Virus record (IMG/VR): IMGVR_UViG_3300031760_004705
Coordinates: 1-64,000 of that record
Strand: one strand, 5' to 3'
Source: a virus
Lineage: Duplodnaviria > Caudoviricetes
Length of the DNA stretch: 64,000 bases
Shown: one piece after another, positions 25,131-39,181 of the stretch
Layout of the letters: each line of letters begins with the position of its first letter
How positions within the stretch are numbered: the stretch's first letter is position 1
Made by a program: the position numbers and the translations under genes
Notes under the pieces: model-generated
Databases searched by the model: none
Seen by the model: the letters and a program-made list of their open reading frames with translations, nothing else
What the model was told of the DNA's origin: nothing

Positions 25131-25170
25131 AAAAGAGGGGTATACTCGTAAGAGTATACCCCTTATTTTA
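25131..25170. terminator. Bidirectional terminator at the convergence of the two arms
   Basis: aaaaaga-ggggtatactc-gtaa-gagtatacccc-ttatttta. Confidence 0.9.
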
Positions 25171-26724
25171 TTTTCAAGGATTATTCTTAGAATTAAGAGA
25201 CTTTTGTAATCCTTTAACTGAATTAGGACCAAAATAACCATCAGCACCATCTGGGCCAACACTAAACTTATGTTTAATTAAAAATTCTTGAATCTTCTTA
25301 GAAGTATCTGGTCCCCAATATCCATCTACATCTGCACCGACTTTCTTTTGAATTGCTTTCACTAAAGCAGATCCAGTGCGTTCTCATGTAACAGATACAA
25401 TACCTTTAAAATATTCTTGATTACCTTTAAGCTGACCAGAGATAACACCATCTACAGGTGTTCCTAAAGATTTCTGTCAAGCTTTGATTGTTTCATATCC
25501 ACCAATACCATCTACTGCAAGTTTAGTAGAGGTTGTAGTCTTATTAGTGGTGGTAGAACTAGAAGTAGTTGTTTTAGCTCCGCCCGTAGTAGCACCTTGA
25601 TAACGAAGAATGCAATCCCATCCATGACTATAGGTATAAATATTCTTTACATTAGTCTCATTACCAGACTGGTCACCGGTTTGGCCACCAGTTGCGCGAC
25701 CACGTTCATCAATAGATGCCTGAGCAATTTTAGCGTTTCAACCATTTCCAGAAATAACTGCGGCAGTATGGTAATTGTCATTTAATAGAATATCACCGGG
25801 CTGTGCTTTAGATAAATCTGCGGGAATACGTTTCCATCCTCGAGCTGTAAGATTACTAGACATATTACCAGTATAACTTGCGCTTCCAGTATCAAATCCA
25901 GCCTTCTTTAAAGCTCAAATTACAAGGGAAGAACAATCACATTCTCCACCATCATAAATATTTTGACGCTGATATTGGTCATATCCAAGAGATCATACAG
26001 CACATGCAGTATACATTCATTCACAAAACTTAGTAAGTTTATCTGAATCTTTAACTCTCTGTTCATTCTTATCATTCTCTAATTTATTTTGTTTAGCTTT
26101 AATACGAGAAGGATAATTAATAACACATCAATTAAAATCTGTACAACCAGATACGTCATCATAATATAAAGCACCATCAGTTAAACGTTTAGTGCCTTGT
26201 TGTCACATACCAATGTCACCCGCGGCAGTTGGTCAATCACGCTGCCATCAAGCAATTCAATTAGCATATTCATCTAATTCATCTTTGTTAACATTATTTA
26301 ATCAAGCAGAACCCTGTATATAGAGTCCCGCATAATATCCAGCTTTAATAAGAGTATCGCAGAAAGTTTTAATTATTGCAGTTAGTGTGCTCTTGGATAA
26401 TTTAAATTGACGAGGATCTTCTACATCCATATAGATGGGCATATCAAAATCATGTCCTTTAAGTAATCCAATAATATGCTCTGCATCTTTCTTTGCTTCA
26501 GCTACAGAGGTGCATACAGTATAATAATACGCTCCAACATGTAGACCTGCGGCTTTAGCTTTTTTGTAATTAGTTTCGTATTGAGAATCGGTATAACGAC
26601 CTAATTTAGTTTCATTACCACCACATTTAACAATTACGCCTCATAGATTATGTTTTTTTATCCATAAGGCGTAATTTACATTACCGTCTCAATGAGAAAC
26701 ATCAATAACGGCTTTACGTTCCAT
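25168..26724 (-). CDS. Three-domain endolysin: GH25 muramidase + Cys/His amidase/peptidase + peptidoglycan-binding repeats (518 aa, about 15 TGA=Trp)
   Basis: IDVSH[W]DG..GLHVGAYYY..IYMDVE; LGYDQ..GECDCSSLVI[W]..GDILLNDNYHTA; VDGIGG..[W]QKSLGTPVDG, DGYWGPDT; single frame to TAA 25168. Confidence 0.9.
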
Positions 26725-33505: not shown

Positions 33506-34159
33506 CTATTGGAAAAATGTAATCGTCTCATTAGCATAAGTTGCTAGGTCATAATAAGATGGAGTTCAGTCTGTAGGTTTATTGCCTTTTTCTAATTTTG
33601 CATGAGCAAAACGGCAAGTTAAACCAGTACTATTTCCAGTCACGCACATGCCAATTAAAAATTCTCAATCAAGTTTAGCACTACTGCTTGGTTGGAATGT
33701 GAAACGATATTGTGTTCAAGTATTAGCTGGAATAGAAACATTATTTTGTGAAGTTCATCCAGTATATCCAGCTGTTGCAGACCCATTTCTTCAACCAGTA
33801 TGCATATGTGCAGTTGTTGCAAGGCTAGACTTTAATCAGCAAGTAAAAGTATAAATCTCTCCAGCTTCAATTGCCCCAGGTTTGGAACATCAAGAACATC
33901 CTCTATTTCCTGTACCTGTATCATTATTAAGAACTAAAGAATTACTACTATTATCATATTCCTCTAAAGTAAATAATGAAATGGGCGAATTATATCCAGC
34001 AGTCTGTCCAAAAGTAAATGCAGCAGACATTGTAGTTGCTGGAAGTACATAATTATTAGTAGCACCTAAGAGATTTTCATTTCCAAAAGTAGAAACTTTA
34101 TCTTGTAAATCATAAGTGACATTATTTAGTCCTTTAATCTGTGAAATTAAATCTGCCAT
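33506..34159 (-). CDS. Docking motif + CBM-like domain (217 aa, about 7 TGA=Trp)
   Basis: ISQIKGLNNVTYDLQD..NENLL..YTFTC[W]LK..[W]TQYRFTF..AKLEKGNKPTD[W]TP. Confidence 0.7.
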
Positions 34160-34167
34160 AATGTCAC

Positions 34168-34788
34168 CTACTCACTATATAATTCAATTGTTTCGTTACC
34201 AATAAATTTTGCAATATCTTCTGGCGCAGGACTTCAATCAGTTGGTTTATTACCTTTTTCTACTTTAACTTTTGCCATTCAAATTTCATCTGCGGTAGTT
34301 GTATTGCTACCAATCATTAAATTAAATCCTACACAATTTGCAGGAGCAGTGTATACAGGTGAAACATAATGGGCAGAAGTAGTAGTTAAAGCTGGAGAAA
34401 ATCAAACCTGAGAAATAATACTACCAGAAGAATTCATTCAATGTATTCCCGCACAACATTTTTGGCCAGCCGTTTTAGCATATGCATCAAAAGATACTAT
34501 AATTTGATCTCCTTCTGCAACATCCCCATATCCTCCACGGTGAACAGAATTTTGAGAATAGCCTTGATATTGAGTTGTGGTTGAAACAATGTGCATATAA
34601 TTAATTCCATTAATTGTTACAACTTCTCTAGTAGTAGGACTTCCTCAATTTACTCAAGGTGCAGGTGGAGTAGCACTTAAAAATCTAGTATTATAAACAA
34701 GATTGCGGCCGCCCCATATAGAATAATCGTCTCTGATATTGTAATTAACATTATCAGAGGTGGCTTTTATCTGAGAAATAACTGCCAT
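34168..34788 (-). CDS. Docking motif + CBM-like domain (206 aa, about 6 TGA=Trp)
   Basis: ISQIKATSDNVNYNIRD..WGGRNLVYN..VSFDAYA..VKVEKGNKPTD[W]SPAPED. Confidence 0.7.
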
Positions 34789-34806: not shown

Positions 34807-37443
34807 CTATGCAGGAACACTAGTTGTTGCAGATGTTCCAGTAAATGTCGAAGTATAAGTCTTAGGTACTGCAATATTACCAGTAACAAGTCGTACTGCT
34901 GTACCTGTAAAGGTAGGAGCACTAACACTACCAGCAGGTGTATAACTGCCAGTAGAAGTTATCGTTGCAGCTGTACCAGTAAATGCAGGTGCAGAGTTCG
35001 TTCCAGCAGGAGTATAATCTTGAAGGACAAGTCGTTTACCTGTGCCCGTAAATGTAGGCTGAGAAACTGTTCCGGCTGGAGTATATGATCCGGTTGAAGT
35101 AATGGTTGCAGCTGTACCTGTAAATGTAGGCTGCGTAGATTGATAAGCTGCATCTCCAGTTTTAACGGTTGTATTAGATCCCTTAGTAGGTAGTGTACCA
35201 GCAGACCAACCAGAAGCAGAACCGTTAGTTGCAGTTGTAAATGACATTACTTCATTTGAAACTGAAGTTCCTGTAATAACTGTTTGATTTGTAACTGTTA
35301 AAGTAGGTAATGTTCCAACAGCAGTAATACTATTAACAGTTGTAGTTGTGCCCGCAGTTTTAACTGAAATAGTTGGGGTACTAACTGTACCAGCTGGGGT
35401 ATAAGATTTACTAACTGAAATCGTTGCAGCCGTACCACTAAATGTTGGTTGTGATACTGTACCTGCAGGAGTATATGTTGCAGTACCGCTACTTGCAGGA
35501 CTAACTGTTAAACCAGTAGCTTTTGTACCTGTAAATGTAGGTGCAGCAACACTACCTGCTGGAGTATATGATTTGCTAACTGAAATTGTAGCGGCCGTAC
35601 CTGTAAATGTTGGTGCACTATTCGTACCCGCAGGGGTATATGTGGTAGTTCCACTAGAGGCCGCACTAACTGTAGCAGTTTTATTTTCAGTTGTAGCAGT
35701 ACTAGTTGCAACCGTACCAGTTGCAGTTACAGTATGCTTATGATTTCCCTTAGCAGCAGTAGATGCCGTATTTCCAAGAGCAAGAGAAGCACTAATTTCT
35801 ACATACCCAGCAGTTGATCCACCATAACGATAAGTTTTATTTGTAGATACATCTACATAAATTTTATCTGCGGCAGCTGCAATTTCAGTAGTATGTGCAG
35901 ACTCTGCATAAAATTTATTGTTATATAAATATCCTTCTTTAATTTCATCAATTGAGCCTGGAAGGACTGATGTAGGAATTGTACCAGTTAATTTACTTGC
36001 ATTTAATGAACTAGATGAAGTTAAGAATCCTGTCACTGTATGAGTATGAGTTCCTGTTGCAGTAATATGGCCCTGAGCATCATATGTTACATAAGGTACT
36101 GCTAAAGTAGAACCACTAGTTGCAGAAGATGTACCTGCGGTTCCCGCAGTTACAGCATTAGTATGTTGAATAACTGTTCCATTTAATTTAATGCCAGTAT
36201 TAGCAGTATATGTTGTATTATTATCAGGTACGGTAACTGTACCAAGACTTTCACCATTTTTATTTTTTAAAGTAATAGTATGATCTGAAATACTAAAACT
36301 AGCTGCATAAGAAGTCTTAATATTATTACCAGATTCATCCTGAGTTGCTTTAGTCGCGGTAGATGCATTTCCATTTAAGGGACCATTAAATTGAGTAGAA
36401 GTAACTTGCGCAGGAAAACTAGCATTTTGAGAATTATCGTAGGAATATAAATGACCCTCTTTTGCCATATTAGAAGGAGTTATCCAGCCAACGCCGCCGA
36501 ATCCCATAATTCTTTGAACTGTTAAGCCATTATAATTAGTATTTCCACCATTTGCCTTAAAAATAAATCTTATACGGCCATATTGAGAACCAGCTGTATT
36601 TCCATAAGTGGCAATACCACTTGTATTAATTATATTATATCCACTTCAACCAGAGATTCCTATATCTTCTGTTTCATTTACAAAAGTTGTAGGAGTAGAT
36701 TGTAGTGCTTTTTGAATTTGTACGGTACAAGAACTACTGCCATTTGTTGAAATATAAATAACAAATTTATTTAAAACAGTATAAACAGAAGCGGCTCCTG
36801 TATCAATTGTTATTCTTAATTGATATTTATTTGTATTTGCAGTTGCTTTATTTGTGTTATCTGCTTTTCCAATTAAAAAACTTCCGCCTGTTCCAAAAAG
36901 AGTAGCATTAACGTTTGCTCCAGCTCCATAATCAGTTCAAGTTGATCCTCCGTCACGACTATATTCAATTGTTACAGAAGAGCCTTTTATAAAAGCTAAT
37001 CTATTAGCTCCTAAATTTGGAACCATTGCTGCATCAATAGGGCCATACGATGCCGCAAAATTTTTACCTCCTCAAGTTAAATAAGCTTCTGGATAACCAG
37101 TTAAAGTATGAGTATGAGTTCCAGATTTTGTGATATGTCCTTGTGAATCATAAGTAACATAAGGAATATCTATTGTCCCATTTACACTTGAGGTAGCACT
37201 TGATGCTCCTGCTGTCGCGGCAGTAACATTATTTGAATGGTTAAAAGTTGTACCCGAAAGGCTTAAACCACTACCAGCACTATATGTAGTATTATTATCT
37301 TGTTGTGTAAAGGTAAAAGTTGTACCATCTCGTCTAGTTGCTGTAAAGGTGGTACCATTTCTTGTAATATTAGCTATTGCACTTCCATCTTTAATATTAT
37401 AGCTACTATTATTAGGAAGTGTAATTTTTGAAATATCTGACAT
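34807..37443 (-). CDS. Long tail fibre with docking motif, HxH motifs and nested YTPAGT/PTFTGT repeats (878 aa, 3 TGA=Trp)
   Basis: Track ORFs 37072 and 34807 join in frame; ISKITLPNNSSYNIKD, duplicated PYVTYDxQGHITxxGTHTHTxTG, Thr/Gly/Ala repeats. Confidence 0.85.
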
Positions 37444-37490
37444 TAATATTATCACCCACCTTTAGTGTAATCACCTAATTTGTTTCATAT

Positions 37491-37532
37491 AAAATAAAAA
37501 GGGCAACTCTGTAATTATACAAAGTTGCCCTT
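37491..37532 (-). terminator. Intrinsic terminator (minus strand)
   Basis: gggcaactttgta-taat-tacagagttgccc then tttttatttt. Confidence 0.8.
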
Positions 37533-37543
37533 GAAAGCATTTA

Positions 37544-39181
37544 TTAACTATAAGTAACAGTAGCGTCAGTATTGTTTTGAGTAAGTGTAACGTTAATTGT
37601 TCCTTCAGGAGTAAAGGTTGTATCTCCACTAGTTGCTTTACTAACTGTAGTAGTTTTATTAGCAGTAGTTGCGGTAGAAGTAGCAACCGTACCAGCAGGA
37701 GTAAAGTTTCCACTAGCAGAAATTGATCCATCAGTAAATGTTGAAGTATAAGTCTTAGGTACTGCGATATTTCCAGTAACAAGACGCACTCCGGTACCAG
37801 AGAATGTAGGCTGAGACACGGTACCTTTAGGAGTACCTTTGACAGTAACAGTTGCTGAAGTGCCAGTAAAGCTGGGTGCAGTATTTGTACCAGCAGGAGT
37901 ATAAGTAACCTCACCACTTGAAGCTGCACTAACAGTAGTAGTCTTATTAGTATTGGTAAGACCAATAGTACCAGCAGGTGTATAACTTCCACTCGCGGAA
38001 ACTGCACCATTAGAGAATGTTGGCTGAGATACAGATCCTGCAGGGGTATAATCTTGTAAAACAAGACGCTTACCCGTACCTGTAAAGGTAGGTGCGCTCG
38101 CCGTAATAGTAACATCTGTAGTTGTAATTGAATTAGTTTTAGTTGCACCAATTTGATATAAACTCAATGTTTCACCTGAGACACTATAATAAGTAATTGC
38201 ATTCGCAGGAGCAGTCGCGCCAGGTGCAGCCGCAGCTAAAGCATTGACAACATTTACTGCTGTTGGATTTTTAATAGTAGTCGCAGAACCTCCACTTGTT
38301 ACTGAAATTGTAGGTGCGGTAACAGTACCTTGTGGAGTATATGTAGCGGTTCCGCTTGATGCAGGACTAACAGTTAAACCTGTAGCTTTTGTACCCGTAA
38401 AGGTAGGCTTAGAAACTGTACCTGTTGCAGTACCAGTAACACTAACTGTTTCAGCAGTACCAGTAAAACTTGCAGAAGTAGGAACTGGAATATCTCCAGT
38501 TACTAAACGTACACCCGTACCAGTAAATGTAGGTGCGGCAACCGTACCGGCAGGCTTGAATGAACCTGAAGAAGTAAGCTCTGATCCAGTAAATGTTGGT
38601 TGAGTTACTGTTCCCGTAGGCGTATATGTTGCCGTGCCACTTGAGGCAGGAGATACAGTAGCAGTTTTATTTTCAGTTGTAGCTGTTGTAGTAGAAACAG
38701 TACCACTTGCGGTACCACTAACTTCAACAGTACCTTCTGTTCCAGTAAAAGTAGAAGTATAAGTTGCGGGTACTGGGATATTTCCTGTCACTAAACGAAC
38801 AGCCGTACCAGTAAATGTTTTAGCACTAATACTGGCTTTATCATATTTAACATTAACCGTATTCTTAGTAGCTAAACTACCATAGCTATTAAGAGCATCA
38901 AGTAAATGCCATTTTTCACCATCATATAAGAATTCTTTAGTTGATGTATCTCCCGCAGTTGTTGGAGCAAAAATTAAATCGCCTTTAACAGGAGTATATG
39001 CACTACCATTTACTTGTATAGAAGATGTAGTAGCTCCATCTGTTAAAGCTGTAGTAGTAACACCAACTAATTTAACACCATTATCTATTGCTTCAAGAGT
39101 TTCAATTTGACCTCGAGCTCAAGAGTCTTTAATATTATAAGTATTACCATTAGGTAATGTAATCTTTGAAATATCTGCCAT
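37544..39181 (-). CDS. Tail fibre with docking motif and nested repeats (545 aa, 2 TGA=Trp)
   Basis: ISKITLPNGNTYNIKDS[W]AR; same repeat modules as 34807-37443. Confidence 0.85.

Follow-up and report, generated by a model that had tools for sequence, protein, structure and literature searches.

Complementary peptide modules in mirror order suggest an out-and-back beta fibre encoded by a large phage

We report on a fibre gene, here named fibre 2, in a 64,000-nucleotide stretch of phage DNA (positions 1 to 64,000 of the IMG/VR virus record IMGVR_UViG_3300031760_004705; Duplodnaviria, Caudoviricetes). This stretch, referred to as the window, belongs to a record of 88,423 nucleotides with a CheckV completeness of 59%. 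Fibre 2 and the related gene fibre 1 are listed with the parts of fibre 2 in Table 1. An earlier note, made from the sequence alone, had treated the interval 37544-38850, which corresponds to residues 111-545 of fibre 2; the gene starts further upstream, at 39181, and the module order given in that note is matched exactly in the code-4 translation. Specifically, the modules of the shaft follow the order P-N-P-N, tip, P-N-P-N, N denoting a 'NKTxTVS' module and P a 'GxRLV' module. Read from the tip outward, every layer sets an N-class module against a P-class module, and the three spacer layers read b':b, b:b' and b':b.

Table 1. Fibre genes of the window and the parts of fibre 2, in window coordinates
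Feature	Residues	Position	Strand	Remarks
Fibre 1 gene		34807..37443	minus	approximately 878 amino acids, three in-frame TGA
Fibre 2 gene		37544..39181	minus	ATG at 39181, 545 amino acids plus stop, codon 21 TGA = Trp
N-terminal peptide, presumed docking tag	1-19	39125..39181	minus	84% DNA identity to fibre 1 start
N-terminal helix and small beta domain	20-126	38804..39124	minus	pLDDT 87-94 (residues 41-90)
Layer 4 outgoing: P (A', long tail)	127-148	38738..38803	minus	opposite N, residues 508-545
Spacer layer 3 outgoing: b'	149-169	38675..38737	minus	opposite b, residues 485-507
Layer 3 outgoing: N (A, long lead-in)	170-200	38582..38674	minus	opposite P, residues 464-484
Spacer layer 2 outgoing: b	201-222	38516..38581	minus	spacer and partner flipped in P0003
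Layer 2 outgoing: P (A', short tail)	223-242	38456..38515	minus	opposite N, residues 412-441
Spacer layer 1 outgoing: b'	243-264	38390..38455	minus	
Layer 1 outgoing: N subtype C ('KATGLTVS')	265-291	38309..38389	minus	
Tip (turn) domain, YYSVSGETLSLY motif	292-369	38075..38308	minus	pLDDT 76-85 (residues 311-350)
Layer 1 returning: P subtype C' ('GKRLVLQD')	370-391	38009..38074	minus	
Spacer layer 1 returning: b	392-411	37949..38008	minus	
Layer 2 returning: N (A, short lead-in)	412-441	37859..37948	minus	
Spacer layer 2 returning: b'	442-463	37793..37858	minus	
Layer 3 returning: P (A', long tail)	464-484	37730..37792	minus	
Spacer layer 3 returning: b	485-507	37661..37729	minus	
Layer 4 returning: N (A, long lead-in) and C-terminal end	508-545	37547..37660	minus	

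Taken alone, fibre 2 is weak evidence for a pairing of its arms, because an alternating (P-N)x4 array cut mid-way is always self-complementary; given its composition, one in six orders of the C-terminal arm would fit the mirror rule. The pattern nevertheless rises above chance, since a C:C' pair flanks the tip, three spacer layers mirror each other and the rule holds throughout the family. The mirror order might also be a by-product of tandem duplication of a P-N unit into which the tip was inserted mid-array, with no fold-back of the chain; the strict (P-N)x4 alternation of fibre 2, which makes the mirror automatic, and the module DNA copies, which at 60-77% identity look like old duplicates, both agree with such an origin. 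It is on the family survey that this explanation largely fails.

The survey comprised 122 proteins, i.e. fibres 1 and 2 of the window and 120 homologues, which were read with a regular-expression parser and split at the largest inter-module gap. The P class was defined by a 'FxG[TN]' boundary, two residues, a basic or polar residue and then Leu or Ile (forms A', C', D', E' and F'), and the N class by a 'TxTV[ST]' strand, a loop and '[YF]xPxG' (forms A, C, D, E and F). A parser based on hidden Markov models was dropped, as its spacers cross-matched and it performed worse. Exact mirror complementarity was detected automatically in 95 of the 122 proteins; when labels were shuffled within proteins, the mean was 41 and the maximum 58. 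All 27 failures were inspected; 26 were parser misses or false matches that become complementary, giving 121 of 122. The nested grammar that the earlier note proposed to look for among homologues was recovered, and non-nested orders are not common among these 122 proteins.

At least 14 architectures obey the rule and some of these are non-alternating. With the slash marking the tip, they include N/P, P/N, PP/NN and the series NN/PP through NNNNN/PPPPP, the mixed forms of two to three layers NPN/PNP, PNN/PPN, PPN/PNN and PN/PN, and the mixed forms of four layers PNPN/PNPN, NNPN/PNPP and NPPN/PNNP. Most members are non-alternating (NNN/PPP, PPN/PNN, NNPN/PNPP, NPPN/PNNP) and still keep the rule, as does fibre 1 with N N before and P P after its tip. 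Together with anti-diagonal covariation spanning 100-300 residues and independent contrasts that favour concerted change (both below), this largely refutes tandem duplication without fold-back, to which we assign hardly any probability.

The modules that face each other are also cognate in subtype. Mirrored layers were A:A' in 143 of 143 cases, C:C' in 12 of 12 and E:E' in 6 of 6, while D was mostly found with D'; when layers out of register in the same protein were compared as a control, this subtype diagonal was absent. The spacer pairs were b:b' (109), b':b (12), b2:b2 (3) and none:none (3), and b:b or b':b' pairs were never seen among the surveyed spacer layers. Moreover, the lead-in of the N module follows the tail of its P partner (a long tail being two residues longer): A:A' pairs were long:long in 36 cases, short:short in 67 and discordant in none, whereas the control with another layer of the same protein gave 63 discordant and 47 concordant pairs. 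Neither long:long nor short:short pairs are confined to one orientation, and they are found at several layers. Finally, rare odd variants of the modules share a layer on the two arms (P0048, P0100, P0035, P0063/P0079 and P0129).

Close relatives of fibre 2 provide some insight into how such arms change. P0003, which is 76% identical to fibre 2, differs from it mainly at two non-contiguous patches, residues 181-210 and 421-450, and these are the two halves of a single spacer layer that is flipped from b:b' to b':b. In P0004, one contiguous central block of fibre 2 (241-420), comprising the tip and the innermost layers, is replaced. Using a tree based on the non-shaft parts only (N-terminal domain and tip), phylogenetically independent contrasts favoured concerted change. 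For the outgoing P module versus the returning N module, approximately 8 of 9 pairs changed together and 0 in opposite directions (median p ≈0.008), for C versus C' 6.6 of 8 together and 0 opposite (p ≈0.016), and for arm length 7.3 of 9 together and 0 opposite (p ≈0.016). The lengths of the two arms correlate with r = 0.79.

Residue covariation was calculated as mutual information with average product correction from a homogeneous alignment of 59 NNN/PPP proteins (alignment A2, reference P0038). The top 25 cross-arm pairs all fall at i+j of 540-570, as do 84 of the top 100, against a background of 17%. The mean score is highest at offsets of up to approximately 6 residues from the antiparallel register and has fallen to baseline beyond 12. 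From the tip to the base, i+j drifts from ≈566 to ≈542, a drift that N units of 49 amino acids opposite P units of 42 would produce. In this register the 'KTATVS' strand lies opposite 'RLVTGNI', the residue before 'NKT' opposite the x of 'NIxVP', the 'SQPTFTG' linkers opposite each other, and b opposite b'. The tip domain has its own internal antiparallel (hairpin) covariation in homologues, which is continuous with that of the arms. Along one arm the signal is gone by 16 residues and nothing is seen at i,i+22. A monomeric beta-solenoid formed by each arm on its own was set aside, as covariation at one-repeat spacing within an arm is absent.

The same data bear on a one-way trimeric beta-helix or beta-spiral, as in T4 gp12 and gp5C or the adenovirus shaft, in which the tip would be an inserted knob and N and P merely the N- and C-proximal repeat types. 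Sub-units of approximately 21-22 amino acids with three hydrophobic positions each would suit such a fold, and in the commonest architecture all N modules precede the tip and all P modules follow it. Architectures with mixed arms in exact mirror order, antiparallel covariation with none at i,i+22 within an arm, and the long mirrored strands of the AlphaFold models (see below) speak against it, and we regard it as extremely unlikely.

In the AlphaFold2 monomer models of fibre 2 and P0038, strands occupy one-to-one mirror positions with the same i+j drift (P0038 sums 566, 558, 550 and 543). Strands 196-220 and 338-363 of P0038 are one such pair and 149-171 and 380-401 another, and the two stretches of fibre 2 modelled at low confidence, 209-273 and 376-442, likewise sit in mirror positions. 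This mirroring is not independent of the covariation result. Both models have a confident N-terminal domain, which in fibre 2 is the only part modelled with high confidence, and the tip of fibre 2 was modelled fairly confidently. The modelled strands, of up to 26 residues, favour an extended ribbon or needle over a beta-helix of short strands. Structure prediction, which the earlier note had proposed as a check on its pairs, is consistent with the covariation, for a shaft that is itself modelled at low confidence. A Foldseek search of the PDB with both models (shaft predicted local distance difference test score, pLDDT, 30-70) gave nothing at E<=0.001, and a wide VIA-align search gave Z<=4.1, chiefly for the N-terminal domain, with several matches to tailspike N-terminal domains.

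Fibre 1 contains a second nested hairpin in its C-terminal 300 amino acids; it reads N N, tip, P P (A, C / C', A') and its b2 spacers are self-paired. Fibre 1 is more telling than fibre 2 because its arms are non-alternating. The presence of the A, A', C and C' modules in both fibres, and a sequence grammar that would be the same for pairing within a chain, between chains or between trimers, raise the question whether the arms pair between molecules (trimer with trimer, or fibre 1 with fibre 2) to form a network or a double-ended fibre. Every protein is self-complementary on its own, across at least 14 architectures with differing numbers of layers, and with two layers in fibre 1 and four in fibre 2 the lengths of these two are unmatched. 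A double-ended fibre would moreover bear the docking tag at both ends, and the tip's own hairpin covariation runs on into the arms. Pairing between molecules is thus very unlikely.

We consider it likely, from the sequence evidence, that fibre 2 is an out-and-back beta fibre in which heterotypic layers, cognate and free in orientation, keep the two arms in register. The outgoing arm (residues 127-291) would be antiparallel to and in register with the returning arm (residues 370-545), because the chain would run to the tip and return. Starting from a short tag and a small N-terminal domain, it would go out to the conserved tip and back, and the shaft would be a stack of layers in which an N segment ('NKTxTVS' strand, loop, 'YTPxG') lies opposite a P segment ('FTGT-GxRLV...'), alternating with spacer layers b:b' or b2:b2. 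The partners would be free to swap arms, yet cognate: A-A', C-C', D-D' and E-E', and the long lead-in with the long tail. They may be in contact, the 'KTATVS' strand forming a beta pair with 'RLVTGNI', and three chains could build a thin six-stranded beta needle like that of T4 gp37. Folding would zip from the conserved tip to the base, and the tip with its inner layers would be exchangeable as a single cassette, because the interior of the hairpin is one contiguous stretch of the gene.

Several points weigh against this out-and-back interpretation. The AlphaFold2 models are of low confidence, with a mean pLDDT of 61 for fibre 2 and 65 for P0038 and predicted template modelling scores of 0.30 and 0.24, respectively, and monomer predictors are known to wrongly fold back the ends of trimeric fibres (PMC6851490). 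Among the 122 proteins P0022 is the sole true exception; it equals P0013 minus one N module of the outgoing arm, so that its outer layers are off register, and in P0013 itself a spacer is missing from one of the arms (a "bulge"). Two contigs were found to carry P0022. The more distant P0123-P0263 have other module vocabularies that defeat the parser, giving 48 full and 36 partial matches and 19 mismatches; all 19 were inspected, all carry unrecognised variant modules, and this set was not counted as a test. Within the family, conservation is highest in the tip (mean entropy 0.6-1.0 bit in alignment A2) and variation is greatest in the N-terminal domain (1.4-1.7 bit), the opposite of what receptor-binding fibres usually show. 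In addition, in-register covariation between the arms equals in strength that between immediate neighbours in the sequence and decays likewise, and symmetric exchange of nested cassettes could yield much of it with no direct contact.

The last point leads to the possibility that in a fold-back fibre equal arm length alone matters, and that cognate pairing and covariation come from co-inheritance of nested cassettes. The decay of cross-arm covariation with register offset, much like that of same-arm covariation with sequence distance, agrees with it, as does the contiguous central cassette swap between P0001 and P0004. Against it, P0003 departs from fibre 2 in a single middle layer, on the outgoing and the returning arm alike, and its inner and outer layers are 75-93% identical to fibre 2; a single nested cassette swap cannot account for this. 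Nor would co-inheritance account for the match of lead-in and tail (103 to 0, whichever arm carries which module and at several different layers), for the unusual variants that meet at one layer, or for the lack of b:b and b':b' spacers. Even with symmetric exchange, matching arms would have to be selected for, and single-layer flips would remain unexplained. We hold co-inheritance as the whole explanation to be unlikely, and an out-and-back fibre with cognate layers remains our preferred interpretation.

With more reserve, we suggest that the family may use a pairing code for beta-strand peptide modules, A:A', C:C', D:D', E:E', b:b', b2:b2 and V:W (see below for V and W), valid in either orientation. 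Such a code would determine how a metal-free, folded-back needle of some tens of nanometres folds, how long it is and in which register its arms lie, and phages would make the needle longer or shorter, or give it a new tip, through concerted changes on the two arms. The earlier note had compared such a code to base pairing. Its complementarity, position by position from the tip and on either arm, is supported by the family grammar, the subtypes, compensatory changes, contrasts and covariation, and the A-A' contacts are a prediction rather than something seen; in fibre 2 by itself the mirror is automatic. The note had also supposed that fibres 1 and 2 share modules at the DNA level and that this would allow length and tip to be shuffled. 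At the 60-77% identity of module copies within and between the two genes, DNA-level sharing is not supported as a recent event; what does appear is a shuffling of central cassettes at the protein level among family members.

Other features of these genes were noted. Twelve copies of a 39-nucleotide element encoding the 'PTFTGT' linker lie across both fibre genes (34885-38827); they are 62-77% identical with a conserved core of ≈15 nucleotides and could offer short homology for recombination at module borders. Upstream of its hairpin, fibre 1 has three HxH-type motifs ('GTHTHT' twice and 'GNHKHT' once) in residues ~100-560 (window 35900-37400), two of them inside a 68-nucleotide repeat that is 76% identical (36029-36096 and 37097-37164); none was found in the hairpin itself. 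These motifs may represent gp37-like metal sites.

A further gene, fibre 3 (P0264; 32128-32904, minus strand), has nested 2,1,3 / 3,1,2 repeats around a central turn and uses other modules, and P0266, 80% identical to it, has one repeat fewer on each arm. Patterns of the type W^nV^n (n = 1-5) dominate among approximately 120 homologues of fibre 3, and by crude patterns the repeat counts were equal in only 49 of 101. V ('ITAVGTLP') and W ('WSAGTLP') modules occur as V..W around a fibre-1-type tip (located at 34807-35400 in the window) in 22 proteins, and in the reverse orientation, W..V, in 64 proteins of the fibre-3 family.

Searches against known families gave no match for fibres 1 and 2 in Pfam, PHROGs or NCBIfam, and neither the fibre 2 protein nor a family profile built from 121 sequences matched any PDB chain, the profile at E<=1. 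There was no tblastn match in the phage GenBank collection, and a search of the literature on the module motifs turned up nothing relevant. In metagenome protein collections, by contrast, relatives number more than 2000 at 90% clustering and 752 at 50%; none of them is named or has a Pfam domain. Related contigs fall into metagenome-assembled genome (MAG) bins assigned to Lachnospiraceae, Ruminococcus, Clostridia and Bacillota, with one assigned to Bacteroidales; in one related MAG contig the protein is again truncated at the N-terminus, as an in-frame TGA would give.

The GC content of the window is approximately 30%. With translation table 11 the region is fragmented, while with code 4 the minus-strand late genes are long open reading frames. 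Fibre 2 has a single in-frame TGA at codon 21, aligned with Trp in the homologues P0003, P0004 and P0008, and fibre 1 was joined across its three. The phage uses genetic code 4, with TGA read as Trp, given that TGA lies inside conserved genes where homologues carry Trp. In-frame TGA is frequent in the lysis, tail and fibre genes among the minus-strand late genes (25168-64000); most early genes on the plus strand have few or none. No tRNA genes were found within the window. TGA-to-Trp recoding of late genes is known in large gut and rumen phages (bioRxiv 10.1101/2021.08.26.457843). The present phage resembles these in being large and in having in-frame TGA in late, tail and lysis genes at the Trp positions of homologues, and also in the Lachnospiraceae, Ruminococcus and Clostridia MAGs in which its related contigs are binned; this likeness is at the genome level, not that of fibre architecture.

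Fibre 2 sits in an array of tail genes between an endolysin (25168-26724) and large tail/baseplate genes, and an N-terminal peptide of ~19 amino acids is common to the start of several neighbouring tail genes. Among the neighbours are two small tail-protein genes with this N-terminal tag (33506-34788, minus strand), whose products match C-terminal parts of long PHROG tail/host-range proteins and give a weak CBM_4_9 match below the cut-off. P0265 (39756-41543, minus strand) is a fibre-like protein of 595 amino acids with no family match; its gene is TGA-free, and an acidic 'DADLDAT ... VVTGVT.VDGE.TAVDS' repeat occurs several times in the protein.

The bacteria within reach of a phage are determined by its fibres, yet most fibre families of gut and rumen phages lack a name, a fold and known rules. 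Here a large family with no Pfam or PHROG entry and no solved relative yields, from sequence, a testable building plan: two complementary halves per layer, a number of layers that sets the length, and a swappable cassette of tip plus inner layers. Such a plan would account for changes of length and tip with no loss of register and would help annotators to recognise these fibres, and structural biology and protein design would gain from it a set of heterotypic beta-pairing modules of natural origin. The evidence from compensatory change is of a type normally limited to RNA helices. If the pairs prove specific and portable, they would provide a grammar already at hand for designing beta-rich nanofibres, and a protein counterpart of the compensatory evolution of RNA stems.

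The closest structural parallel is the T4 gp37 needle, a six-stranded antiparallel trimer with the head domain at the turn (Bartual et al. 2010, as described in PMC9659904) and with iron held by HxH motifs (PMC11705849). Both ends of the gp37 chain are on the virion side. Fibre 2 would resemble it in its out-and-back topology, here deduced from mirror grammar and anti-diagonal covariation, and in being a thin, Gly/Ser/Thr-rich phage fibre. Unlike gp37, it has no His in residues 116-545 and hence no HxH iron sites, and it has no sequence or profile similarity to gp37, PF03406 or any solved fibre. Its arms of 165-176 amino acids are three to four times longer than those of the gp37 needle, which reportedly measure roughly 50. 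The shaft, moreover, is modular, with two complementary classes found on either arm and 1 to at least 5 layers; to our knowledge, a two-class, arm-swappable modular shaft has never been described for gp37. Because of the missing shaft His, the lack of sequence similarity and the much longer arms, fibre 2 is taken to share the topology of gp37 and not its family membership.

With the triple beta-helix of T4 gp5C and gp12 (PMC3004832) and the triple beta-spiral of adenovirus and reovirus, fibre 2 has in common a repetitive, Thr/Gly-rich beta fibre built from short repeats. In these one-way trimeric fibres repeat number sets the length, the chain runs in one direction and a single kind of repeat is used, whereas here two kinds are mirrored about the tip and covariation is antiparallel. 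By analogy only, the family also recalls an RNA stem-loop, with nested complementarity around a loop, compensatory double changes, bulges (P0013), mismatches (P0022) and anti-diagonal covariation; unlike in RNA, the units are not single bases and would instead be peptide modules of 20-30 residues, drawn from a small alphabet of cognate pairs.

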